DNA from: Candidatus Eiseniibacteriota bacterium
GTDB lineage: Bacteria; Eisenbacteria; RBG-16-71-46; SZUA-252
Length of the DNA stretch: 64,000 nucleotides
NCBI GenBank assembly: GCA_963740415.1
Contig: CAVUEC010000013.1
Span: forward strand, 335,878 to 399,877
Direction: 5' to 3'
Each line of letters opens with the position of its first letter. Position 1 is the stretch's first letter. Position numbers and translations under genes: made by a program. This document shows positions 1,090-49,722 of the stretch, piece after piece. The notes beneath the pieces are model-generated. The model did no database searches and was not told where the DNA came from. It was given only the letters and a program-made list of their open reading frames with translations.

Positions 1090-2280
1090 TTATTGCGAGT
1101 AAATCAGTTCCTGCGGAATTGGGTTCAGACCGGGGCGTCCTTTCGCTACCTGAGCGTAGGTTCGCAGGAACGCCTCGGGCCCCTCCTCGATCACCCGCCG
1201 GAGGGTCGCTCGGCCGTACGCCATCTCGATCCGGTACGCCGCGAACATCCCGCTGATCGCCCCGTACTTGCTCCAGAGGGGGCCGGTCCCGGCGAGCTGA
1301 AGAAGCTCCAGCTTGTCTCCCCGACTCGCGCCCGGCTGCCGGAGCCGTTTGCACGCGATCGAAAGCTGGGCAAACGCGTAGTTCTCGCGCGTGCCGGGCT
1401 GCCACGTGAACATCGAGTCGGCCCCGGGTCGCGTCCGCCAATCGATGTAGTGGGCCATGCCCTCGTCGATCATCACCTCCCGCACGTGCGCGAATTCCGT
1501 CTTGGGGGGACCCTGGTAGTCGTCCCATCCGGGGAGAGACGGCTCCACCTGGTGGAGGGCCGCGTGAAACGTCTCGTGCGCCAGCACATGGCGCAGGCTG
1601 CTGATCTGATCCTCGGTCGTCGGTCCGTAGTTGAGAACTTCGGTGAGATTGACCAGCACCACGGGCGCGGAGTCGCTTTCGGCGTTCCCGCCGAGCGTGG
1701 CCGCGTCAAACATCGTCTGGCTGCCGAGTACGCACCAGATCTGGACGGGCTTCCAGTATCGGTAGGCGGGCAGATAGGGTGCTACCTCGGAGGCGACGCG
1801 CGCTGAAATGGCTTCCTTCCGCTTGGCCAGATTGAACGCGAGCGTGACGATGGAATCGCGGGCCTGAAATGCGGGGTCCATGCCAAACCCGCACGCGCCG
1901 GAATCGGGAAGTTCCAGCGCGCGCGCCGCGTCGGCCTCGCTGGTCACGCAGCGGAATTGATCGCGCACGAAGCGTCGGAGGGTGCGGTAGGCCGGCATCG
2001 CGGCGACGCGCTTGGCCTCGGCGCGCGACCGGCCGTCTCCCGTTCCCTGGCGCCCTCCCATGTTCCAGAGCGAGAGAACGCGAGCGGTGGGCGAAACGTC
2101 GAGGACGATGTCGTGCGCGGCGAGGAGCGGCCGGGCGCCGGTGTTGCCGGCGGGCGGCTTGGGTGGGCGTTGCCGGCGCCGCTTTGGCGGGCGCTTGGCC
2201 GCCGCCGCGGCGCGCGAATGCATCGGCACCAGAGCGATCGCGATCACGATGAGGAGCAGCAGTTGTCGGGCCCGCGTCAT
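1090..2280 (-). CDS. secreted HExxH-motif protein, putative Zn-dependent peptidase (DUF2268-like)
   Basis: N-terminal signal peptide MTRARQLLLLIVIAIALVPMHSRAAAA; motif VLAHETFHAALHQ (HExxH) followed by downstream acidic residues; no closer family match recognised. Confidence 0.45.
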   Translation of the reverse strand: MTRARQLLLLIVIAIALVPMHSRAAAAAKRPPKRRRQRPPKPPAGNTGARPLLAAHDIVLDVSPTARVLSLWNMGGRQGTGDGRSRAEAKRVAAMPAYRTLRRFVRDQFRCVTSEADAARALELPDSGACGFGMDPAFQARDSIVTLAFNLAKRKEAISARVASEVAPYLPAYRYWKPVQIWCVLGSQTMFDAATLGGNAESDSAPVVLVNLTEVLNYGPTTEDQISSLRHVLAHETFHAALHQVEPSLPGWDDYQGPPKTEFAHVREVMIDEGMAHYIDWRTRPGADSMFTWQPGTRENYAFAQLSIACKRLRQPGASRGDKLELLQLAGTGPLWSKYGAISGMFAAYRIEMAYGRATLRRVIEEGPEAFLRTYAQVAKGRPGLNPIPQELIYSQ

Positions 2281-2305
2281 CCGGTCAATCTCGCAAAGTG
2301 GGTGG

Positions 2306-4072
2306 CTACGCGCCGGCAAAGAGGCGCGCGATGAGATCTTGATGTCGTTCGGCCACGACCCGGCGCTTCACCTTGAGGGACGGCGTGAGCGCCCCGTTCT
2401 CGACCGAGAGATCATCGGGAATCAGCTCGAAGCGCCTCACGCGCTCGAATTGAGCCAGGCCCGAGTTCACACGGTCCACTTCGGCCGACACCTCGTCGCG
2501 CGTGACGCCATTCTTGGGCACGATGAGGGCTGCGATGAACTTGTGCCCCTCGCCGAGCACGATCGCCTCCTGAATCTTGGGGGAGCTCTTCAGAGCGTCC
2601 TCGATGAGTTGAGGAGCCACCTTCTTGCCGCCCGACGTCGCGATGAGATCTTTCTTGCGGTCGGTGATCCGAAGATGGCCGTCCGGATCCACGACTCCAA
2701 TGTCTCCCGTGTGGAACCAGCCGTCCACCAGCGCTTCGGCCGTTTCCTTGGGCCGGTTCCAATAGCCCTTCATCACCACCGGCCCCCGTATCAGCACCTC
2801 GCTGTCGGGTGCGATCTTGATCTGGATGCCGTCGAACGCCGGGCCCACCGTTCCGATTCGATAGCTCTCGAAACGATTCACGGAGATGGCGGACGAGGTC
2901 TCGGTGAGGCCGTAGCCCTCGAAGATCGGCATCCCGGCCCCATAGAAGAAGAGGGCGGTCTCGCGATGGAGCGCGGCGCCGCCCGACACGCGGAGCCGCA
3001 GGCGGCCCCCGAGGCGGCTCTTCAAACGGGCGTACACCAGAAATCCCGCCAGCGCGTGCTGGAGCCCGAGCCACGCGGGCACGGGTTGGTGCGCATCTTT
3101 GAGTTCGGCCCACTTCATCGCGACGCTTCGGCCCCAGCGCGAGAGATTCGCGCGCGGAAATCCCATGGCCTCGGAGACCTGCGTCGCCTTCTCGAGCAGC
3201 TTCTCGTAGAACCGGGGCACCGCGAGCAGGATGGTGGGACGAACCTCCATCAGATTCACCGCCATCCGGTCGGGGGACTCGGCGTAGGCGACCGTCGATC
3301 CCGCCAGGAGCATCGTGTAGAGGCCGGAACAGCGCTCGAGCACGTGGCTCAGCGGGAGAAACGAAAGATAGCTGTCCCGCCTGGTGATGGACATCGCCTG
3401 CAGCGCGAGGCACGCCTCTGCGGTCAGATTTCCATGCGTCAGCATCACGCCCTTGGGCGTGCCGGTCGTTCCCGACGTGTAGATGATGCTCGCGAGTGTG
3501 TCGGGGCCGATCATGGTGTCGGCGGCGGTCGGCGCGCCCGCACCCGCCGCTCCGGGCCCCGGCAACGGCTCCTCGTCGAAGCACCAGATCCAGCGAATCT
3601 CCGGGGTGACCGCGCGGCCCGTCTCGATCTTGATCTTCTGGTCCCGGTTCGACACGAATACCCCGACGCAGCCCGCGTCGGCGAGGAGCGGGGCGATCTG
3701 GTTGGCGGGAAGCGTGGGGTAGATGGGCACCGTCACCGCGCCCAGGGTGAGGATTGCCATGTCGGCGAGCGCCCACTCCAGGCGACTCTCGCTCAGAATG
3801 GCGACCCGATCGCCTGAGGCGATCCCGCGAGCCTTCAGCGCGGCGCGGATCGCGTCGGCGCGCGCGAGCACCGTGGCCATGGCCACGGGCTCCCATCGGC
3901 CGTTCCTGCGAACCAGGAATGCGTCGCTCTTCTGGTTTCGCTCGAACGCCGCCTGCAGCAATTCGGGTATGGTGTGGACGTCCACTCGTTGACCTCCCCG
4001 AAGCACTGTGACACACTCCGCCGACCGGTGGCTACCTCCGACCGCAGCTCGCCACTCCTCTGAGCGCGCCAA
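2306..4072 (-). CDS. fadD: long-chain fatty acid--CoA ligase (AMP-dependent synthetase/ligase)
   Basis: AMP-binding signature IYTSGTTGTPKGVMLTHGNL; GYGLTE motif; 588-aa uninterrupted ORF. Confidence 0.9.
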   Translation of the reverse strand: MARSEEWRAAVGGSHRSAECVTVLRGGQRVDVHTIPELLQAAFERNQKSDAFLVRRNGRWEPVAMATVLARADAIRAALKARGIASGDRVAILSESRLEWALADMAILTLGAVTVPIYPTLPANQIAPLLADAGCVGVFVSNRDQKIKIETGRAVTPEIRWIWCFDEEPLPGPGAAGAGAPTAADTMIGPDTLASIIYTSGTTGTPKGVMLTHGNLTAEACLALQAMSITRRDSYLSFLPLSHVLERCSGLYTMLLAGSTVAYAESPDRMAVNLMEVRPTILLAVPRFYEKLLEKATQVSEAMGFPRANLSRWGRSVAMKWAELKDAHQPVPAWLGLQHALAGFLVYARLKSRLGGRLRLRVSGGAALHRETALFFYGAGMPIFEGYGLTETSSAISVNRFESYRIGTVGPAFDGIQIKIAPDSEVLIRGPVVMKGYWNRPKETAEALVDGWFHTGDIGVVDPDGHLRITDRKKDLIATSGGKKVAPQLIEDALKSSPKIQEAIVLGEGHKFIAALIVPKNGVTRDEVSAEVDRVNSGLAQFERVRRFELIPDDLSVENGALTPSLKVKRRVVAERHQDLIARLFAGA

Positions 4073-11106: not shown

Positions 11107-11965
11107 CTAGGCCAGCGCGGCCCGGAGCGCCTCCTCCAGATTCGGATGCCGGTGGGAGAATCCGGATGCCAGCAAACGGGCGGGCTCGACCCTTTGGCTC
11201 GAGAGCAAGAGCTCGTCCGCCATTTCGCCGAGGAGCGCGCGCAGCGCGAAGGCCGGGACGGGAAACGGCGTCGGGCGATGAAGAGCGCGGCCCAATGCGG
11301 CGGTGAACTCCGCGTTCGTGACGGGCTCGGGTGAGACGGCGTTGATGGGCCCGCTCAAGTCCTCCCGATCGATCGCGTGAACGATCGCGTGGACCAGATC
11401 CTCGATCGAGATCCAGCTCATGTACTGGCGTCCGTCGCCCAGGATGCCGCCGAGTCCAAAGCGGAAGGGGCGAGCCATCACCGGGAGGGCGCCGCCCACG
11501 CCGCTCAGCACCATCCCGAAGCGCAGGGTCGCGAGGCGGATTCCGGCGTCGTCGGCCGGCGCGGCAGCGGACTCCCACGCGCGGCAGACCCCGGCGAGAA
11601 AGCCGCTGCCACCCGCGGACGTCTCGCGAAGCACCTCGTCGCCCCGGTTTCCGTAGTAGCCGACGCCCGACGCGGACACGAACACGCGCGGCTTTCGCGG
11701 GAGTGCGGCGACCGTTTCCGCGAGAAGGGAGGTGGAGCGAACGCGGCTCTCGAGAATCCGCCGCTTGTGCGCGGACGTCCATGGCCAGCGCGCGATGGAC
11801 GCGCCCGCGAGGTTCACGACGGCATCGACGTTCTGAAGGCGGCTCGGGTCGATCGAGCTTGAATAGGGACGGACGAGGCGAACGACGCTGGTGACCTTCG
11901 CGCTCGAGGTGCGCTGCGAGTGCCGTGCCGATGAGCCCGCTCGATCCGCTCATGAGAACGTTCAC
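11107..11965 (-). CDS. YfcH/TIGR01777-family NAD-dependent epimerase/dehydratase (DUF1731 C-terminus), one frame change near 11890
   Basis: N-terminus VNVLMSGSSGLIGTALAAHLEREGH, then the +1 frame VTSVVRLVRP...VDAVVNLAGASIARWPWTSAHKRRILESRV...; ~286 aa. Confidence 0.7.
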
Positions 11966-12058
11966 GCGCGGGATTGTAGCCGATCGCGCCGGTTGGCAGC
12001 CTCGCGCGTAGGCTTCGGGCCGCCAGGCCCGAGTTGGGGAGCGTGATATCCTCGCTGC

Positions 12059-13001
12059 ATGTCCCCACCAACCGAAAAAACAGCCACCGCGCAGGAATAT
12101 CGTGCCGCCCGAACCGCCGCGGCCGCCGTGGATCTGTCCGCGTGGACGGTGCTCCGCCTTCACGGCCCGGACACCCGCGCGTTTCTCCAGGGGCTCGCGA
12201 CGCAGGATCTGGAGAATCCCGGCGCGGCGGCCACCGCATCCAGCACCGGGGCCGCGCCCCTCAGCTTGTTCCTGAGCGAGAAGGGGCGACCCGTGGCGCT
12301 CGGCTGGGTATCGGTCGCGCCGGACGGGAAGAGCGCGTGGGTTCTCGCCGACGAAGGCTCGCTCGGCGCCCTGCGCGCCCACTTCGAGCGCTTCCGCGTG
12401 ATGGAGGACGTCGAGTTCGAGGGGCCGGAAGGAACGCCGCGAGTCATCGGCGTGATCGGACCTGAACGCGCCAATCTGTTGGGCCAGCTTGCCGCGCCAA
12501 TCTCGGGGGCGATCGCGATCGCCGCGGATCCCATTTCGTTCCTGCTCGTCCCGGGCGATCGCGCCTCCGTTCCGGGCCCTTTCGTTCACCCCGCGACATT
12601 CGAAGCGTGGCGCCTCGCGACAGGGATTCCCCGCGCCGGAATTGATTTCGACTCGGATCGGATCGCGACCGAGCTGAGCCTTCCCGAGCGCGATCTCCAT
12701 GACCAAGGGCTGCTACGTGGGGCAGGAAGTGGTGTCGCGGACTTCGAACCGCGGCCAGGTGAGGCGCCGCCGCGTGGGCTTTCGCTTCGCGTGGGGCGGA
12801 TCTCCAATTCCCGCGCGCGCCGAGATCCGCGCCGGGGAAGCCGTCGCGGGATACGTCACGAGCTCCGTTCAAGAGCCCGAGACCGAGTCCGGGCTCGGAA
12901 TGGGATACGTGACGACCGACGCGCTCACCGAGGGCGCCGCTCTCACGGTAGGCGACGGCCCTGCCTCAACCCGCCTCACCATCCACGACTGGCCACTCTA
13001 G
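12059..13001 (+). CDS. ygfZ: folate-binding tRNA-modifying protein YgfZ (GcvT-like fold), one frame change near 12690
   Basis: AVDLSAWTVLRLHGPDTRAFLQGLATQDL; the C-terminal KGCYVGQEVVSRT...GQVRRRRVG motif continues in ORF 12699..13001. Confidence 0.7.
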
Positions 13002-13285
13002 TCTCGAAGCCGTTGACTTAAGTCGCTATGTTTGATATACTTCCGGCTTCGCTGGCAGAAATTCGCCCAGAGGCCGACGGCGCCCGCCGTCCCCTCTCGA
13101 TTCGTAAACGCCGGCGGAATGGGCGCGCTCGAGTCCCAACCCCGCTCGAGAGCCCGCATAGGGGGTGAGTCTCTCGGGCCGCCCGCCACGCGGCCGGCAC
13201 CGGTAATTCGTTTTCTTCGCGCGCCCGCGTGAGTCCTACCCGGCCCCACATCGGCGCGCCCCCAAACCCAGAGGAGCGAATCCCA

Positions 13286-13891
13286 ATGCAACGTCTCTTC
13301 CGGAACACGACGCTCGCGTTCGCCGCGGCCGCGGTCTTGATCGCGGGCACCGCGACCGCCACCACCGTGCAGAAGTTCACGATGGGCGATCTCACGAAGC
13401 GCTCGGAATCGATCGTTCGCGCGAAGGTGGAAGGCCAATTCAGCCGGCGCGACGACATCAATCACGAGATCTACACGTACACGACGATCAGCGTCCTGGA
13501 GCCCGTGAAGGGGGCCGGGGGTGAGAAGCAGATCACCATCCGCCAGCTGGGCGGCGCCGTCGACCACCTCGTCTCCTACGTTCCGGGGATGCCCACGTTC
13601 CGGACAGGCGAGGAAGTGGTGCTCTTCCTGAGCGCGAGGGACCGGGAAGGATATCCGTGGGTGGTGGGGTTGCAGCAGGGCAAGTACACGGTCGTGACCG
13701 CTGACAACGGCCTGAAGAGCGTCCGCAACGAGCTCACCGGCCTGCGGCTGCTCACGCCCAACGGCACGACGACGGAGGGGACGACCTCGCGCGATCTGCC
13801 GCTCGCCGAGTTTCTCACCGGCATCCGAACCAACCTGAACGTGGACGGCCGGATCAAGGTCGACACCACTCATCCCACGCCGATCCACTGA
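13286..13891 (+). CDS. secreted protein of unknown family (cassette copy 1; paralog of 17026..17631)
   Basis: Signal peptide MQRLFRNTTLAFAAAAVLIAGTATA; shares the blocks TTVQKF..KSESIV..K..EIYTY.T.SV.E.VKGA.GEK..TIRQLGG...HL.S.VPGMP.F.TGEEVV.FL..RD.EGYPWV.GLQQGKY.VVT..NGLK.VRNEL.GL.LL.PNG with the second copy (~55-60% identity by eye). Confidence 0.6.
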   Translation: MQRLFRNTTLAFAAAAVLIAGTATATTVQKFTMGDLTKRSESIVRAKVEGQFSRRDDINHEIYTYTTISVLEPVKGAGGEKQITIRQLGGAVDHLVSYVPGMPTFRTGEEVVLFLSARDREGYPWVVGLQQGKYTVVTADNGLKSVRNELTGLRLLTPNGTTTEGTTSRDLPLAEFLTGIRTNLNVDGRIKVDTTHPTPIH

Positions 13892-13910
13892 GAAAGGAGG
13901 ACCCGCAGCC

Positions 13911-16648
13911 ATGAACCGTAAAGTCCATTCGCATTGCCGGCGCGCTCCTCCTCTTCGGAGCGATCGCCGCGCTTTCGTTCCATCCCGCGTTCGCGTTCAT
14001 CCGCATCTCGGGCCAGGGAACCGGAGCCTCTCCGGTTGTGCAGGCCCACTGGCTCGACTCCGAGCTGCCGCTGAAGAGCGTCATCGATCCGACCAACAAC
14101 GACGTGCCGCCCGCGGACGCGCTGGCCGCCATCCAGGCGGCGGCCCAGACGTGGCAGGACGTCAACACGAGCTACTTCACCATCAACGCACACCCGTTCG
14201 CCGGGGCGCCGGACGTTCAGCCGGCGCTGGCCTTCGACGGGCAGAACAGCGTCATCTTCCTCACCGACGACACGGGCACGGTGTTCGCGCCCGGCGTCAT
14301 CGAGTTCGTCCGCACCGTGTTCGAGTCGGATGACGGGACACAGTCTCGACGCGGACATGGTCTTCAACGATCGAGACTTCTTCGCATCGGTCTCGTCACC
14401 CGATCTCACGCCGGCTCCTCCGGGGCAGTTCTCGGTGGATCTCCAGTCGGTGGTCACGCACGAATACGGCCACTACCTGGGTCTCGACCACACCAGCATC
14501 ACGGGCGCGACGATGATTCCCTTCGTCGGGCCGGACACCAGCATGCGGACGATCGAGCTGGACGACCGGGCCGGCGTCTCGACCATCTATCCCGAGTCCG
14601 CGTCGCGGCCGGGCGGCCTGAGCCCGGGCGCGAGTCGACTTCGCGGCCAGCACGGGCACCGTCTCGGGAACCGTCGTGAGCGGGTTCAACGGATCGCCGA
14701 TCTTCGGCGCGCACGTGGAGGCATTCCTTCTCACCGCGCCCACGCCCGATCACCAGATCAGCGCCATTTCCGGCGAGCTGACGCTGAGGAACGGGCTGGG
14801 GGACTTCACCATCCGCGGGCTTCCGCCCGGGCCCTACGCCATCGCCATCGTCCCGCTCGACGGCGTGCACACCACCGCGTCGGATGCCAACATCGGGGGC
14901 GTGTACAACGGCCTCGACATCAACTTCGAGCCGGAGTTCTGGAACGGCGCGGGGGAGGGCGGGAACGGCTTCACCGACCTGGCCAATGACTATCGCCCCC
15001 GTGAGCGTCGGCCCCGGCGCGAACACGGCCGGCGTCAACTTCATCACGAACACGTTCCCCGGCCGCGTCGTGATGGCCCAATACGGTGAGTTCGAGAACA
15101 TCGTGACGTTCGCCAACACCGGATTCCTCGCGGTTCGCTTCGACCCGCCGTTCGACGCGCCGTTCACCATCTCGAGCGTGGAGTTCCCAAGCTTCACCTT
15201 CGACGGCGGACCGGCCGTCTTCCCGAGCGCGCGGCTCTGCCGGCTGGACAAGACGACCGGGCTTCCGGACATCGCCCATCCCATCGGGCAGATCGCGCCG
15301 CTCGTGGGGAGTCCGGGCGGGGTGAACGTGGTGCCGCTCAATTTCCCGATCCGACGTGATGACCGGACGCTCTTCTGGGTCCTCGAGTTCCCGGCCGCGG
15401 GGGCCGACTTCCCGAACAACTTCCCGTTCCTCTTCATGGACTTCGTGCAGATGGAGCGGGGCTCGTTCGCCAATACCTATTCGGTACCGTTGGGTGGCGT
15501 CAACGCGGGCATCCTGCTCGATCGCAACCTGATCGTGAGCATGACCTGCCAGATGTCCTCGCCGCGCGCGACGCCGATCTCGGCGCCGTCCAGCCTGGGC
15601 GGGAACCGGATCGACCACGCAATCGACTTCAGCTATCAACTGCCGGGCGACGTGCGCGCGGACGGGTTCGCGATGCCGCCGCGGTCGTTCGACCACGTGG
15701 AACTTCTCGTGCGGAGGCCGGGTCCCTCCGGGCACCTACACGACGGTCGGATTCGGCGGGCCGCGCGCGGATCACATCAAGCTCGACCGGGCGCCCTCGC
15801 CGGCGACGCCGCTCATCTGGTCCATGCAGGCGGTCGACCAGAACTGCCACAACAGTCTTCAATCAAACGTGACGGTGACGGGGCTGGCGGAGGACACGGA
15901 CGAGCCGAACGGCCGCCGCGCCGACGCGACGCTTCTGCCGATGCCCACCGTCAACCGCGCCGAGACGTATTCACCCGCCGGGGACCAGGATTTCTACCGC
16001 CTGTTCGCGAGACCCGGAGAGATGATCGACGTCAGCGCCACGCACGTGGGCGCAAACGACGGCGTCAACGATCCCGACTACGTCATGTTCCTCTATGACG
16101 GCGACGGCAACATCGTGGCGTACAACGACGATTTCACCGGATTGGATCCGCGCATCGTCTACAACGTTCCGCCCGCGGCCACGACATTCGGCTCGAAGTT
16201 CCCGCGGCGCTTCGCGGTTCAGATCACCGACTACTACGGTTCGCTCTTGAATCCGACCGGAGCGCCTCGCATTCCGACCCCGCTGGCCTACGCGGTGAAC
16301 GCTTCGGTGGGTGCGCCGCCGACGGTGGCCACGCCGGGCACGGACGCGGTGAATCCGAATCAGTACCAGTTCGTGAACAGCGGGCCGAATCCGGCCAACC
16401 CGCTGTCGAAATTCCTCTACATCATTCCGATGAATCAGGGGCCGCAGACTGTCCGGCTCCGAATCTACGATGTCGCGGGGCGGTTGGTGCGGACACTGGT
16501 GGACGCCACTCGCACGCCGGGACCGTACACGGCGGTCTGGGACGGGCGAGACGACCATTCGAGACCGGCCGCTTCGGGAAACTACTTCGCGCGGATGGAA
16601 ATCGGGACCGCGTTCACCAAGAACATGCAGGTCACGATCTTGAAGTAG
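13911..16648 (+). pseudogene. secreted matrixin-like metzincin (HEYGHYLGLDH + Met-turn) with CarbopepD_reg-like, PPC and C-terminal FlgD-Ig/T9SS-like sorting domains; cassette copy 1, at least 5 single-nt frame changes (~13928, 14335, 14633, 14990, 15715)
   Basis: The true frame is traced across ORFs 14038, 14330, 14676, 14884 and 15824. HExxHxxGxxH...TMIPF; GTVSGTVVSGFNGSPIFGAHVEAF; DQDFYRL; C-terminal ...LRIYDVAGRLVRTLV...AVWDGRDD...GNYFARMEIG...QVTILK. At 13926 an extra c in a cc run; at 14990 ccccc replaces the expected ccc. Confidence 0.8.
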
Positions 16649-16670
16649 GCAAGCGAAGGTAAGAGCGAAT

Positions 16671-16710
16671 CGGGGGCGGTGGATACCGACGCCGCCCCCG
16701 GTTTGTTTCG
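16671..16710 (+). terminator. Rho-independent terminator after metzincin copy 1
   Basis: CGGGGGCGGtggataccgacGCCGCCCCCG hairpin followed by GTTTGTTTC. Confidence 0.6.
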
Positions 16711-16741
16711 GCAGGAGATGGGCGGCGAGACCGTCAAGGCG

Positions 16742-16770
16742 ATTGATTGAACGCGGCGAGTATGGTAAAA
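16742..16770 (+). promoter_or_regulatory. sigma70-like promoter (-35 TTGATT, 17-nt spacer, -10 TAAAAT) ~255 nt upstream of the second cassette
   Basis: gaTTGATTgaacgcggcgagtatggTAAAATgcc; strongly AT-rich hexamers in a 70% GC background. Confidence 0.4.
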
Positions 16771-17025
16771 TGCCCGCCTCTCTCGGCAACGCTAGATCCT
16801 TTGCATCCCGGCGGCGCCCGCCGTCTGTCGCATCAAACGGACTGTCGACATCGCCGGCGAAATCTCGCCGCACTGTGTCTGGCCACCCTGGGCAAGGGGG
16901 TGATCGCCAGACCAGAGATTCTCGCCACGCCTTCACGCACCCGCGCTTATTCCCACGCGACGGATCGTGGGAATCCACCGTTTCCCGCCCGCCGCCGCAC
17001 GTTCCCACCAGTAGGAGAAACGGCG

Positions 17026-17631
17026 ATGAATCGCATGAGTCGTATCGCGACAGTAGCGCTCGCGGGGGTCGCACTTTTTGGCGCGAGCCTCGCCAACGCC
17101 ACAACGGTCCAGAAGTTCTCCCGCCAAGAGCTCGCCAAGAAATCGGAATCGATCGTCATTGGGAAGGTGCAGGACGTCTCCAGCCGGCAAGATGCGGCCA
17201 GCAAGGAGATCTACACCTACATCACCCTGAGCGTCTCGGAGTCGGTGAAGGGCGCGAAGGGAGAAAAGATGGTCACCATTCGCCAGCTCGGCGGCTCGGT
17301 CGGCCATCTCATCTCCGCGGTCCCCGGAATGCCCTCGTTCAAGACCGGCGAAGAAGTGGTGGTCTTCCTGACCGTGCGCGACAAGGAAGGCTATCCGTGG
17401 GTCATGGGACTTCAGCAGGGCAAGTATTCCGTCGTGACCGACGAGAACGGCCTCAAGCAGGTGCGGAACGAATTGGACGGGCTGCAACTGCTCTCGCCGA
17501 ACGGATCGGTGCAGGGCGGCAAGGCCTCCACCGAGCAGGCGCTCAACGCCTTCGTGGACGGCATCAAGACCGATCTGAACATCGATGGCAAGGTCAAGAT
17601 CGACACCAGCAATCCCACCCCACTCAAGTAG
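17026..17631 (+). CDS. secreted protein of unknown family (cassette copy 2; paralog of 13286..13891)
   Basis: GGAGA RBS; signal peptide MNRMSRIATVALAGVALFGASLANA; collinear similarity to copy 1 over the full length. Confidence 0.6.
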   Translation: MNRMSRIATVALAGVALFGASLANATTVQKFSRQELAKKSESIVIGKVQDVSSRQDAASKEIYTYITLSVSESVKGAKGEKMVTIRQLGGSVGHLISAVPGMPSFKTGEEVVVFLTVRDKEGYPWVMGLQQGKYSVVTDENGLKQVRNELDGLQLLSPNGSVQGGKASTEQALNAFVDGIKTDLNIDGKVKIDTSNPTPLK

Positions 17632-17646
17632 AGGAGGACGACCACC

Positions 17647-20400
17647 ATGCATCGCGATCGCATTCGCATCGTCGTCGCCGTCCTGCTCGTTGGGGCGGCC
17701 GTACTGTCGTTCGCGTCACCCGCTTCCGCATTCATCCGGATCGCGCGCCAGGAGACGCCGACGAGCCCCGTCGTGCAGGCGCACTGGCTGGATACGGATC
17801 TGCCGCTCAAGATCGTGATCGATCCGACGAACTCGGATCAGCCTTCCGGGACGGCCCTCACGGTCATCCTGGCGTCGTCGCAGGCCTGGGAGGACATCAA
17901 CTCCTCCTATTTCACCGAGAGTGCCCACGCTTTTGCGGGCGGGCCGGACCTTCCGCCCGCGCTCGCCAATGACGGGCAGAACAGCGTGCTCTTTGACCCG
18001 ACGGGCGTGAACTTCCCGACCGCCGGCGTCATCGCGTTTACGCGGTCGTTCATCGACGGGACCGACGGCCGGACGCTCGATTCGGATCTCGTCTTCAACG
18101 ATCGGGACTTCTTCTCCTCGGTGTCCACGCCGAACCTGACGCCGGCGCCGGCGGGGCAGACCTCGGTCGATCTCCAGGCGGTCATCACGCACGAATACGG
18201 TCACATGTTCGGACTCGATCACACCAGCATCGCGGGTTGCACCATGGTCCCGTTCATCTCGAACGACATCAGCCAGCGGACGCTGGAGCTGGACGATCGG
18301 GCGGGCAATTCCACGATCTATCCCGAGTCCGCCTCGCGGCCAGGCGGCCTCTCGCCGGGCGCCGTGGACTTTGGCTGCGACGACGGGGACCGTGTCGGGA
18401 ACCGTCGTGAGCGGATATGACGGATCGGCCCTCTTCGGGGCCCACGTGGAGGCCTTCAACCTCGCGGACCCGACGCCCGCGAACGAGATCAGCGCCATCT
18501 CGGGTGAGCTGACGCTGCGCAACGGCCAGGGCGAGTACATGATTCACGGCCTGCCGCCGGGCACGTACGCGATCGCCATCATCCCGCTGGACGGTGTTCA
18601 CACGGTCGCGGCGGACGCGAACATCGGCGGCCCGTACAGCGGGCTCGACATCAATTTCGAGCCTGAGTTCTGGAACGGCGCCAGCGAGAGTGCGGCAACG
18701 GGTTCAACGACAACGCGAACGACTACTCACCCGTCACGGTGTCCGCCGGAGCCAACGCGGGCGGCGTCAATTTCATCTCGAACACCTTCCCTGGCCGGGT
18801 CATCATTGCTCAGTACGGCGCGTTCGAGAACGTCGTGACCTTCCGGAGCACCGGCTATCTCGCGGTCCGCTTCGATCCGCCGTTCGACCCGCCGTATACG
18901 ATCACGAACATCGAATTCCCGTCCTTCACGTTCAACAACGTGCCGGCTCCGTTCCTGAGCGCGAAGTTCTGCGCCCTGAGCCAGGCGACCGGGCCTGCCC
19001 GGACATCGCGAATCCCGCTCTGTCAACCAGACTCCGTTCACTGGGAACTCCGAACGGCGTGAACACGGTCCCGCTCAACCTGAGTCGTCACCTCGGCTAA
19101 CCAGACGTTCTTCTGGGTCCTGGAATTCCCGTCCCAGACGACGTTGCCGGGATTCCCGAACAACTTCCCGTTCCTGCGCATGGACTTCGTGCAGATGGAG
19201 CGGGGACACTTCGCGAACTCGTATACGGTTCCGCTCAGCGGGCCGGGCGCGGGCATTCTGATCGACCGGAACATCGCGGTCAGCATGACCTGCCAGCTGT
19301 CGAGCCGCTTGCAAGACGCCCATCTGACGCCCACGTCGAATCTCGGCGCGAATCGCCGGCTCGACTTCACCGAGTTCTCGTACGAAGTGCCTCCCGGACA
19401 GTGCGGGCGGACGGGTTCGATCATGCCGTTGGGATCCGCTCAAGAAGGCGCACCTGATCGCGCGCTCGGTCGGGGCGCCGGGCACGTACACCACGGTGAT
19501 GCTTCGGAGACAAGAAGAAGGACACGTTCAAGCTCGATCCGCCGCCGCCGAGCAACGTGGTCACCATCTGGTCCAGCCAGGCGGACGACGCGAACCAGCA
19601 ATAGGAGCCTCCAGTCGAACGTCACGATCACGGGACTCAGCGAAGACGCGGACGAGCCGAACGGGAAAGCGAAGGGAGACCAGGCGACGTTGCTGACGAC
19701 GCCCGTCGCGAACCGGCCCGAAAGCTACTCGCCCGCCGGCGACCAGGACTTCTATGAGATCACCGCGACGATTGGCCAGGTGATCGACGCGAGCGCGGTC
19801 CATGTCGGAGCGCTCGACGGAAGGAACGATCCCGACTACGTGATGTTCCTCTACGACAAGAAGGGGAACATCGTGGCCTTCAATGACGACTTCACGGGTC
19901 TCGATCCCCGGATCGTCTACACGGTGCCGCCGCCCCAGAAAGGGAACGTGAACCAGAGTCAGGTATTCCGGATTCAGGTCACGGACTTCTACGGATCGCT
20001 CCTGAACCCGACGGGCGCGCCGCGGATTCCGAGCCCGCTGGCGTACAACCTGAACGCCTCGGTGACGACTCCGGCCGCTCCCGCGGCGGCCATGGCGGCT
20101 GGGGCTCGTCCGGACGTGTTTGACTTCGTGAACAGCGGACCGAATCCTGCCAATCCGATCTCGAAGCTGATGTTCATCATTCCCCAGAACCAGGGGGCGG
20201 TGAACGTGCACCTTCGGATCTACGACGTGAACGGGCGCTTGGTGCGGACGCTGGTCAGCGGCGTTCGCGAGCCGGGCCCGCACACGGCGGTTTGGAACGG
20301 CCGGGACGATCTGGGCCGCGGCGTTGCGTCCGGGAATTACTACGCCCGGATCGAGATGGGCCAATTCGTCAAGAACACGCAGCTCACCATCTTGAAGTAG
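17647..20400 (+). pseudogene. secreted matrixin-like metzincin with CarbopepD_reg-like, PPC and FlgD-Ig/T9SS-like C-terminal domains; cassette copy 2, frame changes at ~18375, ~18695, ~19030 and four more within 19390-19610
   Basis: HEYGHMFGLDH...TMVPF; AATTGTVSGTVVSGYDGSALFGAHVEAF; DQDFYEI; C-terminal HLRIYDVNGRLVRTLV...AVWNGRDD...GNYYARIEMG...QLTILK. About 65-70% identical to copy 1. Confidence 0.8.
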
Positions 20401-20419
20401 AAGCGTGCACATCGGATTC

Positions 20420-22835
20420 ATGGGGGGGCCGGCGAGGCACGCCGGCCCCCGTTTCATTCGACTCCTCGCGGTCGCGCTCTGGATTGGGATCGCGGCGACG
20501 CCGGCGCGCGCCTACAACTGGATCCCGCCGCGCGCGATCACCGCGGAGCTCCCCAGCGCCACGCTGGCGCCCAGTTCGACGCACGTGCTGCAGATGGTGG
20601 TGCGCTCCAACCAAACCCACGTGGACCTGTCGTGGACCGCTTCCTTTGCCGGAGAGTACCCGGTGGTCCTGTCCCCCACTTCGGGGATGCTGTCCATCGA
20701 GGCGGGCAACATCGGAACCGTGAATTTCACCGTGACCCTCTCCGACACGGCCCATGGGACGGGGTTCCTCTCCGTCGATCTCCGGTACCAGGCAACAGGC
20801 GGCCGGGCCTCGAAGGTGGCGAGCAACATCGTGGCGGCGATTCTCGGCATGCCGGAAGTAAAGCCGGTGCCCAATTCGCTGCTGGCGCCCGCCGGAACCG
20901 CGACGTCCATGAGCTACCAGGTTCACAGCACGATCGGGGTCGCTGAGGCCGTGGATCTCGTGGCGACACAGACGAATCCGGACCCGAACAACCTCAACGC
21001 GCTTTTCGCCATCGGCGCGCCGCCGGCCTCCGTGAACCTGCCGGCAGGGGGAACGGTCACCGTTTCCGTGCCGACCACGCTGTCCGCGAACGCGTACGCG
21101 GGGAATCTGAACGGGATCATCCTCAACGTGGTGAGTGACGCCGGGCTTTCGGTGGCGACCGGGAACGCAATCGTTTCCGCCACTTCGGGCTCGCTCCCCA
21201 CCGCACTGGTTCCCGTAGGGCTCACCGCCCTCGACGAGACTGCGGCGGACCGGGACGGCTCGGTGGCATTGCCCGCGCGCGGATATCGCCTGTTCACGAC
21301 CGGGATCGGCGGAGTCCGCGTCATGCGGGACGTCTCCACCGACTCGATCGGGCCCATCGACGCGGACGCAGATGGCGTGGATGACCGCGTTCTCGGCACG
21401 ATCCGTATCCCTGCGTACGCCGCAGCACTCGCGGTGATCCAGGGATTTGTGTCGGCTGCCGGCGAAACGCTGGACGTGGGCCTCGTCGCCGCCGGTAGGG
21501 GCGGACTCATGCTCGTCGATCTCCGAACGGTCGAGGATCCCACCTTCGGCACGTGGGAAGACTTCTTCGACGTCGACATGAACGGGATCGACGATCGCAT
21601 CCTGCGCATCATCCCGCTCTCGGGCTTCGCGACCGACGTCGCGTGGTTCCGGACGCCGTCGGGCCGGACCGTGGCACTGGTGGCCGACGCGGACAGCGGC
21701 TCGGTGCCCGTCTCCGCGACCTACAATCCGGCGCTCGTCACAGCGGGGACCGGGCAGGGAGTGGTCGCAATCGACGTCGGCGCCGCCCTCGACTTCATTG
21801 GCAATCCGCCATTCGCCGCCGGCACTTTGTCCACGCCGGGGAGCGCGCTGGATCTGGAATTGCGCGGAGGGAGTTCGCCTGACCTCGCGATCGCCGACGG
21901 TGCATCGGGGGTCTCCGTGTACGGTTTGACCGCGTCGGGCGGGATCCCCGCGACGGTGACGTTCACGCCGCGCGGGTCGGTGTCACTGTCGAACGCCTGG
22001 GGGACTCCGTACGCGCGCGATCTCGCGTGGGTCTCGAACACCAAGGACAGCAGCTACGTCGCGGTGGCCGCGTCGGCCGGCGGGATGCAGCTCGTGCGCG
22101 TTCCACCCGCTGGCGGTGGCGCGCCCAGCCTTGTCTTGGCGCAGCAGACTCTAGCGCCCGCGATCGGCATCGCGGGCGCATGGACCGGCACGCTCGCGCG
22201 TGGCGCAGGGCACCGGGGGCGTCGGCCTATTCGCAGCTCCCGGAGCGGGGTTCCTCGACCGGATCGCGCCCGCGGCCGCGGCGCCCTACACGGCGCCGGT
22301 GACGCTGGCTCGCGGCGCGCCCTGGGCCGCGACGGGGGCGGCCCTTGAAGTCGCGTCTCATCAAACGCCGTCCGGTATCGCGACAGCGCTGGTGTTTCAC
22401 CAGACGACGGGCCCGATTCCCGAGCTTCTCGTGAGCGACGGTGCTCGTCTTCTCGTGCTCCGACCCGGCACCGCGCCGATCACCGCCGTCGACATCGAGC
22501 CCAAGAGCCCGCCGGCTCGCCGCCTGTCCCTATCGGTCGCGCCCAATCCGGTCGAGCGGAACGCGTTGTTCGAGGTGCGGTCGGAGGCTAGCGGTCCGGG
22601 TGTGGGTGGGGCGGGATCCGCCGCGCCGCTGGCACGCATACGAATCGAGATCTTCGACGTGCACGGCCGGCTCATACGGCGGCTCAGCGTGGCGGGGACG
22701 GAGATCGGCGTGCGCGCCGCGTGGGACGGGATGGACGGGTCGCGGCGCCCGGTCAGCTCCGGGCGCTACTGGGCACGAGTCACCGGGCCCCCGGGAGGGG
22801 AAACGGCTATCGTGCGATTCGTCGTCCTGCGCTAG
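20420..22835 (+). CDS. secreted ~800-aa protein with LVIVD-like beta-propeller repeats and a C-terminal FlgD-Ig/T9SS-like sorting domain; one frame change near 22200
   Basis: Signal peptide MGGPARHAGPRFIRLLAVALWIGIAATPARA; repeats GGLMLVDL / GVVAIDVG / GVSVYGL / GMQLVRV; C-terminus in ORF 22200..22835 ...IRIEIFDVHGRLIRRLSV...AAWDGMDGSRRPVSSGRYWARV...IVRFVVLR. Confidence 0.6.
20423..20458 (+). terminator. GC-rich hairpin plus T-rich tail after metzincin copy 2, overlapping the start codon region of the next gene
   Basis: ATGGGGGGGGCCGGCGaggcaCGCCGGCCCCCGTTTCATTC; same design as the hairpin after copy 1. Confidence 0.45.
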
Positions 22836-22873
22836 CGGGCCGCGCCAGCAGGCGCGAACCGCGCCCCCGCCGG

Positions 22874-25097
22874 CTACCTCGCCGCGCGCATCGCCGCGGT
22901 GACGTGCGTCCAGGAGCCCCGGTCGTTGTAAGTCACGCCGTACTTCTCGCCCATGTACGCCTGGAACTGGGCCGTCGTGACCTTCTTCCAATCCCCGAAC
23001 GCCTCCGGATGCTCGGACAACAGCCAGTTGATGTCCTGCGTCATCTCGAGCCCCGCCGCGCCGTTCACGATATAGGTTGGAACGTCCGCGCAGTTTTTGC
23101 GCCAGAGATCGAGCTGGATCTTGAGCTTGTCGTAGATCGCGCGTCCGAGCGTCTTGTCGCCGTGTCCCAGCCTGGCCAGGTCGCCTGATTCCGCGGCCTT
23201 CACGGCCTCAACCAGCTTGTCGCCCACGATGCCGTAGGTCATCAGAAGCCCGCTGAAATCCGGATAGGCGTTGTAAAGCGGCTCGTATTTCCCGCCCGGC
23301 GTGCGCCCGATCAAGAGCCACTGCATCGCCTCGTCCGCGGAGACGTGCTTCACGCAGAAGTCGAGGTTGGGATTCCGCTCGAGGAACACGTTCGCCTCGA
23401 TCGGCCTGGACGTGCGGTCGTAGAGGAGATGGCCCCACGTGGGGTCGTAGAAGATCCGCTCGGGGAAGTAGTCGTGGGTGATACGGCCGAGCTGGTCGAT
23501 CGAGCGCGCTCCGCCGAAGTCCGCGGTCACGTTCTCCAAGATCGGCGTGTTCTCGGCGAGCACGAACTTGAGCCCGGGGAAGCCGCCGGTGCGCGCGTAC
23601 AGGCAACGCTCGGTGGACCAGAACACCCAGCCGCGCTTCTCGTCGCGCAGATATCTCGATCCAGTCCTCCTGGCAGAGAATGCCGACGTGGGGGAAGATG
23701 CGGTCGAGCTCGGACTCAAGCTCTCCGCCCGAGAGACCCTCCCGCTCGAGATCCGAACGATAGCGGCGCTTCAATTCGTCGCGACGATAACGCTCGTTCT
23801 TCTCCGCCCAGAACGCGCCGGCCGTCGTCTTGCCCGTGCCGGTGGGTCCGGTGAACGTGGTCGCGGTGCCCTTGCGATTCAGCACGGCGGCTCCCGCGTG
23901 CGCGGAGATGATGTCGACCTGGGACAGAATTGCCATGAGCGGCGAGAGGACGCCGCGGCTCTTCACCTCGCCGTGGTAGTCCGTGTTCACCGTGAGAATC
24001 GTGACCGTGTCGCCCAATTCCTTGAGCGGCGCGAAGTAGACGAAATTCGACGTGACGACGCCGTTCGAATCCGGATCCCAGAGGCGCGAGTCTTTGAGCT
24101 TCTTGGGGAGGCCCAGCTTCTCGGCCGAAACGCGGGCGCGCTTCAATTTCAGGAGGAACGAACGGTACTCCGCCTCGCTCCGCGGCACGCCCATCAGGGA
24201 GAGGATGGTGACGTGGGGCGCGCGCTTTCCGCCGCGGGCCTTGAATCGCTCGTCGATCGCCTTCGCGATGACGCGCATCTCCGCGTCGTCGGGCGGGAAG
24301 AAGTTCGTCTGTGAGGTCTTCTTTAGATACGGGACGTTCCCCTTCTGCGTGTACTGGACGCCGGCGCAGCAGAAGTGGGAGATCAACGTCTTCCGCTTCT
24401 CCACGGCCTCCAGCGCGCGCAGCCAGCCCTGCGCCTCCTTCACGTCCGCGCGGTGCTCGTCGTAGATCGTTCGCGTGACCAGGCGCTTCGCGCGGCCCGT
24501 GATGACCGTGTTGAACGAATTGAGGACCGGGCCCACCGTGGGGTCCTTCTCCTTCGGATCCCGGCGGAGCAGGATGTCGCCGCGGTCGTTCACGCCCAGC
24601 TCGCTGATGCCCGTGTCGAACTTGAGATAAAGCCCGTGGTCGTAGACCAGCTCGCCCAAGGGCAGCCTGAGGCCGTCAAAGTTCTTGGGATTCTCGCGGG
24701 AGCGGTGGATGACGTCGAACGGCGCGATCCATCGTTCCTGTTCGGTGATCCCGTCCGGTCCGAGCACGCGGAACCGGCGCCCGACGTTGTAGAGCGGAAT
24801 CCCGGCGGTACGAAATTCGGACAGGGCCAGAGCGTCTTCGCGGACAAAGACGACCTCCCCGGAGCGATCCCGGATCACGCGCTTCGATCCCTTTCGATCG
24901 CGCGCATTCAGAAACGGCTCCAGGTTGACGGTCGGATAGGGATGCTTGGTCACTTCGGCTCCTCGCGGTTCCTTCGTGGACGGTTTCGACGGCGCGTGGG
25001 ATATCGACCCGGCAGGAGCCTCCAACATGGCAGCGCCCCCCGGGCTGGCCAGCTTCTTCACTTCTCCCTCCCTCGGATTCTCCGGATTCTTGGTCAC
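22874..25097 (-). CDS. uncharacterised ~740-aa P-loop protein (Walker A GPTGTGKTT), one frame change near 23690; immediately downstream of nadE
   Basis: ORF 23208..25097 (...FTGPTGTGKTTAGAFWAEKNE...GILCQEDWIEI) continues in ORF 22874..23719 (RYLRDEKRGWVFWSTERCLYARTGGFPGLKFV...). PEPCK/HprK-like kinase fold suspected but not established. Confidence 0.45.

Positions 25098-49645: not shown

Positions 49646-49722
<77 letters not shown>

Follow-up and report, generated by a model that had tools for sequence, protein, structure and literature searches.

The 64-kb window analyzed here (by which we mean the whole stretch of DNA) comes from a soil bacterium, Candidatus Eisenbacteria. It carries a cluster of five genes on the forward strand, embedded among housekeeping genes in a chromosomal context. 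Two of these, s1 (13286–13891) and s2 (17026–17631), are intact ORFs that each encode a 201-aa secreted protein with a predicted TIMP/NTR fold. Each is followed 15–20 nt downstream by the start of a large protease gene with an AGGAGG Shine-Dalgarno site ahead of it: p1 (13911–16648) encodes a matrixin (M10) of ~910 aa, as identified by tblastn against the relative L001 and by Pfam, and its paralogue p2 (17647–20400) encodes a matrixin of ~911 aa. The fifth gene, c3 (20420–22835), was delimited by tblastn, Pfam and comparison with the relatives L001 and L002, and encodes a secreted protein of ~805 aa. Alignment of 13308–16655 with 17048–20405 gave 70.6% nucleotide identity over 3413 columns. 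This bears out a tandem, collinear duplication of a two-gene unit, which a preliminary description of this DNA had claimed together with the order and spacing of the small signal-peptide gene and the protease in both units. In L001 the s1 and s2 orthologs are 62% identical to each other, and s2 of the window is 89% identical to its L001 counterpart. We propose that in this lineage an ancestral s-p-c3 cluster gained, on its upstream side, a copy of the s-p pair duplicated as a single block.

The intergenic regions contain candidate signals on the same strand. A promoter-like site lies 5' of unit 1 (13013–13041; TTGACT, 17 nt, TG-TATACT), assigned by consensus match only, with 10 of 12 positions matching and an extended -10; a consensus scan placed another 5' of unit 2 (16743–16771; TTGATT, 17 nt, TG-TAAAAT). 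Both segments are conserved in L001. The GC-rich hairpin that had been described at the end of each unit is present with a T-rich tract in both cases. At 16672–16700, 3' of p1, a terminator-like hairpin followed by GGTTTGTTTC was read from the sequence, having been missed by the consensus scan because the T-run rule of the scan was unmet. At 20424–20450, directly 3' of p2 and within the first codons of c3, there is an 11-bp all-GC hairpin with a T-rich tail. The ~250-nt leaders matched nothing in Rfam and have ordinary folding energies (z of -0.55 and -0.90). Each unit is probably a two-gene operon in which s and p are co-transcribed.

The large genes had been read as continuous ORFs, and the preliminary description did not notice that p1, p2 and c3 are all frameshifted in the window. 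Five single-base insertions interrupt p1 (at 13924, 14332, 14633, 14994 and 15726), ~18 inserted bases interrupt p2 (at 18374, 18691, six in 18993–19085, seven in 19307–19439, and at 19599), and the frame of c3 is broken at 22198–22235. The truncated 257-aa p2 product is deposited at NCBI/ENA (P0270, 100% identical), and the indels therefore belong to the deposited assembly. The five insertions in p1 and ~18 inserted bases in p2, their position outside homopolymers and their clustering in p2 would all be expected if the frameshifts were real, that is, if the locus were decaying and the proteases, at least p2, were pseudogenes in this genome. However, the housekeeping genes ygfZ, PEPCK and NAD synthase (at its C-terminus) are likewise shifted, PEPCK keeping 94% identity before and after its shift, and amino-acid identity to intact orthologs holds at 75–95% across the shifts. 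Furthermore, all five genes are intact in the relatives L001 and L002 (201, 909, 201, 911 and 807–814 aa). We consider true pseudogenisation very improbable, given the same kind of insertion in housekeeping genes; because such genes are broken too and the five genes are intact in relatives, assembly errors are most likely the cause of the breaks in p1, p2 and c3.

In spite of these breaks, p1 could be followed by tblastn over residues 6–909 of the 909-aa L001 ortholog in four frame segments with 89–95% identity. Its zinc motif HEYGHYLGLDH (14459–14491) is accompanied by the Met-turn ATMIP, and the corresponding elements of p2 are HEYGHMFGLDH (18190–18222) and CTMVP. Peptidase_M10 (PF00413) scored 49.9 and 38.2 bits for the intact L001 orthologs and 46.1 bits for a fragment from the window, against a cutoff of 24, and NCBI names the homologs of these proteins 'matrixin family metalloprotease'. 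The proteases are thus matrixin-like metzincins, as had been claimed from the HExxHxxGxxH motif and Met-turn. Neither p1 nor p2 has a prodomain, and the cysteine-switch motif PRCGxPD was not found in them. In p1, whose signal peptide is ~28 residues long, the Pfam M10 match begins at residue 57, and distant partner proteases are alike in this respect. Beyond the catalytic domain, p1 contains a CarboxypepD_reg-like region, ~450 aa without a domain match, and a FlgD_ig/T9SS-like C-terminal domain. Two of the accessory domains listed previously did not hold up in Pfam: the CarboxypepD_reg region stays under threshold (21.6–23.4 bits for intact L001 orthologs and 29.4 for the window fragment, cutoff 32.3), and the proposed PPC domain (PF04151), for which a DQDFY motif is seen by eye only, gave no match in the intact orthologs even at E≤1.

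The C-terminal domains lie at ~16310–16645 in p1 and ~20060–20397 in p2. In the L001 orthologs they match FlgD_ig (PF13860) at 31.4 and 37.9 bits, above the cutoff of 27, but reach only 16.3 and 20.8 bits with the sorting-domain model TIGR04183 (cutoff 23), and PF18962 is non-significant. The FlgD_ig part of the tail assignment therefore stands for p1 and p2 and its T9SS part falls below cutoff. Local similarity to PorU and PorZ C-termini was also seen. No porU, porV, sprA or gldKLMN gene was found within the 64-kb window, and we found no paper linking Eisenbacteria with T9SS. Export by a C-terminal-domain pathway may apply to these proteins. As previously noted, c3 ends in a domain of the same type: its C-terminus is homologous to those of p1 and p2 by tblastn (33–49% identity, E ~1e-8), with FlgD_ig scores of 14–22 bits that are under the cutoff. 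The body of c3 is repeat-rich and without a domain match; the LVIVD-like repeats reported there amount to GGLMLVD-type motifs seen by eye only, as LVIVD (PF08309) did not match the intact orthologs at E≤1. Wherever the contig of an Eisenbacteria locus extends far enough, a c3 gene is found downstream of the protease, and c3 is a conserved member of the cluster, more than another cargo.

The small proteins were said to belong to no recognisable family, and indeed neither s1 nor s2 matched any model in Pfam or NCBIfam. Residues 1–25 of s1 form a signal peptide with predicted cleavage at ATA|TTVQKF, the mature N-terminus of s2 is also TTVQKF, and s1 contains zero cysteines. An AF2 model of s1 (pLDDT 82, pTM 0.74) was assigned by structure search to the TIMP/NTR fold, an NTR/OB fold, with agrin NtA and the PCOLCE NTR among the top structural matches. 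At the sequence level, hhalign of the family profile gave E 0.012 against TIMP-1 and 0.0084 against a TIMP-1/2/3 alignment, with a probability below 5%. The alignment pairs G34–G79 of the window protein with TIMP Q9–A51, which places T26, the first mature residue, on TIMP Cys1. A residue-for-residue match is seen between the motif RSESIVRAKVEG of s1 and NSDLVIRAKFVG of TIMP-1, the TIMP sequences having been checked against the PDB. Among 127 diverse family members, position -1 is Ala in 100, position +1 is Thr in 90, Ser in 22 and Ala in 11, position +2 is T/V/I and position +3 is V/M/I; the window reference has zero insertions from the cleavage site to the fold. Pfam NtA gave faint matches in two of these 127 members, the family profile matched no PDB sequence, and a search of BFVD viral folds returned generic OB folds only. 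A JGI label of one family member (P0008) as 'flavin-binding protein dodecin' was rejected as a stray annotation since it is unsupported by any family model.

The family is large, comprising 14,122 clusters at 50% identity, and has no Pfam model. We surveyed gene linkage in 79 loci from species-level genomes, which contain 88 occurrences of the small domain. A metzincin motif lies beside the small domain in 72 of the 88: in 68 an ORF with HExxHxxGxxH is found 430–1340 nt downstream on the same strand, and in 4 the motif is upstream. The stop and start codons of the two genes frequently overlap. For 10 diverse partner proteases from at least eight phyla, Matrixin was the best Pfam match in all 10 and scored above cutoff in nine. 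In addition, more than 100 natural single-chain fusions of the small domain with a matrixin were found. Three of these (P0149, P0166 and P0213) consist of a signal peptide, the TIMP-like domain and the matrixin without a second signal peptide; P0166 has more than 100 full-length homologs and its AF2 model (pLDDT 90.8) shows a disordered linker at 201–211. This linkage and the fusions lend strong support to the idea of the small protein as a dedicated partner of the protease. Among the roles listed for it earlier (inhibitor, chaperone, propeptide-like or substrate), an inhibitor or propeptide-like function agrees best with the predicted TIMP/NTR fold. Four family members (L063, L072, L076 and L080) stand alone with no protease nearby.

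Building on the duplication, the matrixin identity of the partner, the predicted fold, the register and conservation of the N-terminus, the gene linkage and the fusions, we lean, with reserve, toward the view that s, which lacks cysteines, acts in TIMP-like fashion as an inhibitor or latency factor of the prodomain-less matrixin p. Both s and p would be exported by Sec. Signal peptidase would cleave s after AxA and free a near-invariant Thr-Thr-Val N-terminus, located at the position in the NTR/OB fold that equals Cys1-Thr2-Cys3 of animal TIMPs, where it may chelate the catalytic zinc. Since the catalytic domain of p begins ~20 residues past its signal peptide without a cysteine-switch prodomain, p would be active in the periplasm, the probable site of action of s. 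There s may bind p 1:1 and silence it until either p is exported by way of its FlgD_ig/T9SS-like C-terminal domain or s is removed. Elsewhere among the phyla the TIMP-like domain is fused ahead of the catalytic domain, where it would stand in for a prodomain.

This last arrangement also bears on a different role, which we regard as rather unlikely, in which s is a detached prodomain or a folding or secretion chaperone that keeps the matrixin foldable or export-competent, with any inhibition incidental and without N-terminal zinc chelation. The fused domain occupies the exact prodomain site, the protease lacks a prodomain of its own, and the tight spacing and overlapping stop and start codons suggest stoichiometric co-production. 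Such a role leaves unexplained, however, why a near-invariant residue in a TIMP-like register directly follows the signal-peptidase site, and we know of no prodomain chaperone with an NTR fold.

Animal TIMPs (MEROPS I35) and their MMP targets (M10A) are a close parallel for the inhibitor reading. The mature N-terminus of s is in Cys1 register, a VIRAK-like strand and a Y-x-Y-x-I...KG strand of TIMPs align with s, the N-domain is predicted to share the NTR/OB fold, and the partner enzyme is a matrixin. In TIMPs the inhibitory N-terminus is kept rigid by the Cys1–Cys70 and Cys3–Cys99 disulfides, and its extension by a single residue abolishes activity. In contrast, residue 1 of s is Thr/Ser rather than Cys, the CxC motif is missing, and s1 and s2 have no cysteines and hence none of the three N-domain disulfides. 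Also unlike TIMPs, s has no TIMP C-terminal domain and no Pfam match to TIMP (PF00965) or NTR, shares an operon or a polypeptide chain with its protease, has a partner without a cysteine-switch prodomain, and is a predicted inhibitor. The lack of cysteines, the weak sequence-level similarity to TIMPs and the existence of protease-less members all count against a TIMP-like inhibitor.

Binding rather than inhibition is the function of most NTR modules (agrin NtA, PCOLCE, C345C), and PCOLCE enhances BMP-1. In this manner s could serve to target the protease or to recruit substrate, by attaching to a polymer or surface component to which the protease is then directed, a role we think has little probability. 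That agrin NtA and the PCOLCE NTR rank among the top structural matches is in keeping with it, as is the conserved third surface protein, c3, that accompanies the pair. However, s lacks a C-terminal sorting domain and would therefore reach the surface with the protease only if bound to it, and a conserved free N-terminus would be left unaccounted for by a binding role.

Two bacterial systems precede the one described here, so the suggestion that it was previously undescribed is only partly right. In Listeria monocytogenes, the adjacent mtz and tim genes encode a secreted metzincin and a protein that Phyre2 predicts to resemble TIMPs; the protease cleaves the latter, inhibition is undemonstrated, and Tim (AEO06250.1) is a lipoprotein encoded in a cI/cro phage remnant (PMC8235301). 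The adjacency of metzincin and TIMP-like genes is shared with the Eisenbacteria pairs. In contrast to Listeria, the small gene comes first in the window, s is a substrate of signal peptidase I and not a lipoprotein, the context is chromosomal housekeeping, and p is a 910-aa multidomain protein; the likeness of s to Tim lies in the predicted fold and the gene adjacency. Firmicutes members of our family share the lipobox, N-terminal linker and gene order with Listeria: L076 and L080 have a lipobox and a ~50-aa linker preceding the domain, and in the Paenibacillus pair L079, which had no tblastn match in phage databases, the protease gene is first. These features and the mtz-tim study itself (PMC8235301) speak for s as a substrate or pro-effector, as proposed for Tim, from which the matrixin would free an active NTR-fold fragment acting on the envelope or on other cells. 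The cleavage of Tim by its protease, like the binding function of most NTR modules, counts against an inhibitor. We nonetheless hold the substrate role to be unlikely: Gram-negative members are already freed by signal peptidase and have no linker to cut, and cleavage of Tim makes a new N-terminus immediately ahead of the TIMP-like fold, as would be expected equally if an inhibitor were being activated.

The second precedent is in Tannerella forsythia, where small genes upstream of T9SS (KLIKK) proteases encode inhibitors termed potempins; Potempin A (PotA), which has an OB fold, inhibits the MMP-like T9SS protease karilysin, and its gene lies directly ahead of that of karilysin (PMC9890683). 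In both systems a small ORF directly precedes the gene of a protease with a C-terminal sorting domain, a putative one in the case of p, PotA has the OB fold, inhibitory function and MMP-like target that are predicted for s, and protection of the producer's own envelope is a role we propose for s as well. Potempins differ in that they are outer-membrane lipoproteins of 98–132 residues that inhibit through loops, by a 'bilobal' or standard mechanism, and not through the N-terminus (PMC9890683), whereas s has an AxA signal peptidase I site in place of a lipobox Cys. No potempin matched the s family in the PDB sequence search and none was among the top 50–60 structural matches listed. The same paper reports that PotA made no contribution to karilysin secretion or maturation (PMC9890683), which is a further point against s as a chaperone. 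A periplasmic inhibitor encoded beside an M10 protease is also known from the serralysin inhibitors Inh, AprI and SmaPI (MEROPS I38). These inhibitors insert N-terminal residues into the cleft, with the N-terminal amine bound to the zinc; they differ from s in that their partner is an M10B serralysin with type I export.

To our knowledge, karilysin is the sole bacterial MMP-like enzyme characterized both structurally and functionally. TIMPs are regarded as an animal family. They have been called the only endogenous protein inhibitors of MMPs (PMC9890683). Because the pairing, sometimes fused, recurs across many phyla, an inhibitor/enzyme couple thought typical of animals appears to be widespread and almost undescribed in bacteria. 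We tentatively suggest, as a possibility short of an even chance, that s proteins are true ancient homologs of animal TIMPs. The couple would have been born in bacteria as an operon whose inhibitor works without disulfides, its free Thr/Ser N-terminus chelating the catalytic zinc, and would have been fused in many lineages into a new zymogen. Bacterial matrixins would be under endogenous control mainly by this family, from which the metazoan system could plausibly derive. If so, it would represent a general control mechanism for bacterial matrixins, have implications for how the animal TIMP/MMP system originated, and establish a zymogen architecture that is new in having a TIMP-like domain instead of a prodomain. 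It would also provide cysteine-free, easily expressed scaffolds for engineering metalloprotease inhibitors. With the predicted fold, a family of more than 14,000 clusters without a Pfam model gains a testable function.

The two units lie in a single collinear block (13308–16655 versus 17048–20405) of 70.6% nucleotide identity, and each starts with an intact 201-codon ORF with a signal peptide (s1, 13286–13891; s2, 17026–17631), behind which an AGGAGG site and, 15–20 nt on, a large protease gene (p1 and p2) are found. The block and this gene order confirm the tandem two-gene cassette of the preliminary description, and a GC hairpin with a T-rich tail 3′ of each unit bears out its terminators. 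Upstream of each unit is a promoter-like site with an extended −10, leaving leaders of ∼250 nt each (13042–13285 and 16772–17025) that have no Rfam match and ordinary folding energy. The second of these hairpins (20424–20450), whose 11-bp stem is all GC, stands 24 nt past the p2 stop and within codons 2–10 of the third gene, and could attenuate read-through into that gene. Among the related loci, two small-gene/protease pairs occur only in the lineage of the window, L001, L002 and L004. Single-copy orthologs are slightly nearer s2, so that the pair adjoining the third gene holds the ancestral place. Two tandem pairs are likewise found in an unrelated uncultured bacterium (L069, 798–4370), whose proteases carry HEFGHNLxLxD without the third-histidine pattern; there the pair was duplicated independently, and the zinc site has diverged.

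Neither p1 nor p2 is open in the window, as translated matches switch frames. The preliminary description, largely right in what it observed, missed these frameshifts, and three of its domain calls were left unconfirmed. With Logan contig L001, from a close relative, as reference (87% nucleotide identity, same gene order), extra single bases map to 13924, 14332, 14633, 14994 and 15726 in p1 and to 18374, 18691, six sites in 18993–19085, seven sites in 19307–19439, and 19599 in p2; the third gene has extra bases at 22198–22235. The p2 insertions are clustered (six in 92 nt, seven in 132 nt), with each cluster bringing translation back into frame. L001 and L002, the latter a 390-kb ENA contig, have all five genes uninterrupted (201, 909, 201, 911 and 807–814 aa), the same kind of shift affects ygfZ, PEPCK (94% identity on either side) and the NAD synthase C-terminus in the window, and NCBI/ENA already list p2 as a truncated 257-aa product (P0270), encoded on a 630-kb contig. 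On these grounds we attributed the frameshifts to faults in the assembly as deposited. Their pattern resembles an artefact of consensus building or polishing, in which reads of the two paralogs were perhaps mixed; that the locus is instead decaying, with p2 truly being lost, strikes us as very improbable given the intact genes in relatives and the shifted housekeeping genes. Further gene-breaking single-base insertions are present at 10200, 12689, ∼23650 and ∼25430; like those in p1, p2 and the third gene, they are not in homopolymers. In a 316-aa protein on a 2.14-Mb ENA contig (P0114), an s2 ortholog continues into the out-of-frame read-through peptide of window ORF 16743–17972, so that the assembly of a very close relative has a similar indel.

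The proteases carry the HEYGHxxGLDH zinc motif and a Met-turn, and their intact L001 orthologs score 49.9 and 38.2 bits with Pfam Peptidase_M10 (matrixin; cutoff 24) and 31.4 and 37.9 bits with C-terminal FlgD_ig (cutoff 27), in agreement with the metzincin and FlgD-Ig calls made from the DNA. On the same orthologs the proposed CarbopepD_reg-like domain stayed below threshold (23.4 and 21.6 bits versus 32.3 for CarboxypepD_reg) and the proposed PPC (DQDFY) domain had no Pfam match. The M10 model begins at residue 57, after a ∼28-residue signal peptide, and a cysteine switch is absent, together indicating an enzyme without a prodomain. TIGR04183 (T9SS type A sorting domain) reached 16–21 bits on the protease tails against a cutoff of 23, so that by sequence they may be termed T9SS-like, a label that is not certified; the 64-kb window holds no T9SS genes. 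An 851-aa Eisenbacteria ortholog (L025, 10526–13081), alike in N-terminus and downstream domains, is missing HExxH, which points either to inactivation of the enzyme or to one more fault of assembly.

As the preliminary description had supposed, the small protein belongs to no recognisable family: no Pfam or NCBIfam model matched it. A word-indexed search returned 307 relatives, the named ones being Candidatus Eisenbacteria, and when a profile was run against 1.84 billion cluster representatives, 14,122 clusters passed E≤1e-3, of which 5,862 also passed E≤1e-10. Among 127 diverse members, Pfam gave only two faint agrin NtA, three faint DUF4131 and one stray WD40 match. An AlphaFold model from 52 sequences (pLDDT 82, pTM 0.74) had agrin NtA, PCOLCE NTR and TIMP-1, -2 and -3 as its first Foldseek matches in the PDB, a ranking that makes its predicted fold that of the TIMP/NTR module. 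Like other NTR proteins, it might conceivably serve in targeting, though we consider this unlikely.

Its linkage to matrixins was surveyed by scanning one genome per species, which gave 79 loci with 88 small-domain matches. About 24 loci are from Eisenbacteria; the others, at 25–38% identity, are from Latescibacterota, Gemmatimonadota, Acidobacteriota, Myxococcota, Planctomycetota, Sumerlaeia, Verrucomicrobiota and Firmicutes. In 68 of the 88 matches an HExxHxx[GN]xx[HD] ORF on the same strand follows after 430–1340 nt, in many cases with an ATGA overlap; four have the motif upstream, three are at contig ends, and 13 have no strict motif (six with HExxH variants downstream, four standing alone). 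Matrixin was the best Pfam match for all ten diverse partner proteases, above cutoff in nine, and all ten start directly behind the signal peptide. Natural fusions (P0149, P0166 and P0213) consist of a signal peptide, a TIMP-like domain with an S/T-V/T-V start, a linker and a matrixin, and have no second signal peptide; P0166 has >100 full-length homologs and an AlphaFold model (pLDDT 90.8, pTM 0.71) in which linker 201–211 is disordered. The adjacency and the fusions uphold the core of the earlier interpretation, that the small protein is a partner of the protease. A rival reading, to which we give a minor share of the probability, makes the small protein a detached folding or secretion chaperone. 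Two consecutive TIMP-like domains ahead of a matrixin (L056, 3612–4621), and a matrixin motif and TIMP-like domain in one frame with the protease first (L037, 9065–10453), may be further fusion architectures or artefacts of simple ORF-finder gene calling.

In TIMPs the catalytic zinc is bound by the alpha-amino group of Cys1 (PMC9890683). The Eisenbacteria alignment shows little or no variation in AxA|TTVQKF around the predicted signal-peptidase site. Of the 127 diverse members, 100 have Ala at −1; at +1 Thr (90) outnumbers Ser (22) and Ala (11), T, V or I prevails at +2, and V, M or I stands at +3. The cleavage site of the window reference is contiguous with the first strand, with no insertion, and distant members in other phyla share this N-terminal arrangement. 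When numbering starts at Thr26, the stretch S15-E16-S17-I18-V19-R20-A21-K22-V23-E24-G25 of the window protein parallels S15-D16-L17-V18-I19-R20-A21-K22-F23-V24-G25 of TIMP-1. Alignment of the family profile by hhalign to TIMP-1 and to TIMP-1/-2/-3 (sequences checked against the PDB) gave an identical register extending through the Y-x-Y-x-I...KG strand, with pairwise E values of 0.012 and 0.008 and low probabilities. The register would place the free N-terminus at the TIMP Cys1 position, which we take as supporting evidence and not proof. The small protein has no cysteines, so that the TIMP disulfides are absent.

The simplest reading, which we somewhat favor, is that the small protein is an inhibitor or latency factor of the matrixin. 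Lacking a prodomain, the matrixin would become active on folding in the periplasm; the co-translated TIMP-like protein, whose N-terminus is conserved and would be free, would hold it in check until it is exported or released. In fused forms the TIMP-like domain occupies the prodomain position. That the N-terminus mediates the inhibition is the key step and is inferred. Our full-text literature search found one bacterial precedent, the mtz-tim pair of Listeria monocytogenes. Tim is a lipoprotein, TIMP-like by Phyre2 prediction, that the adjacent metzincin cleaves ∼50 residues from its N-terminus; inhibition was not shown there (PMC8235301). Firmicutes family members resemble Tim in lipobox and linker, and in L079 also in gene order. 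The role proposed for Tim, that of a substrate or pro-effector, seems doubtful for our protein beside inhibition. In Tannerella forsythia, genes for T9SS proteases are directly preceded by those for potempins, which are small inhibitory lipoproteins, and PotA, an OB-fold inhibitor of MMP-like karilysin, works through loops (PMC9890683); it has no detectable similarity to the window protein. Reviews of TIMP evolution regard the family as metazoan. New here are the predicted TIMP/NTR fold, the putative N-terminal register shared with TIMPs, the finding that the family is large, widespread and specifically linked and fused to prodomain-less matrixins, and the conserved third gene.

This third gene (20420–22835, ∼805 aa) lies 3′ of the protease in every Eisenbacteria locus with a contig reaching far enough (L001–L029). 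It is thus a conserved third component of an ancestral cluster of small gene, protease and third gene. Its C-terminal tail is homologous to the protease tails, as the preliminary description had proposed; the LVIVD-like repeats also proposed found no support, with neither LVIVD nor any other Pfam match. In L001 a beta-carbonic anhydrase gene (Pro_CA, 11729–12460) lies between the third gene and PEPCK and is missing from the window (22836–22880) and from L002. The window also encodes two more peptidases, a DUF5700 putative zinc peptidase (1093–2367, minus strand) and an M1 aminopeptidase (46896–48680, plus strand), and its remaining genes are housekeeping (SUF system, enolase, acetyl-CoA ligase, a sigma-54 two-component pair and a tRNA at 49649–49722).
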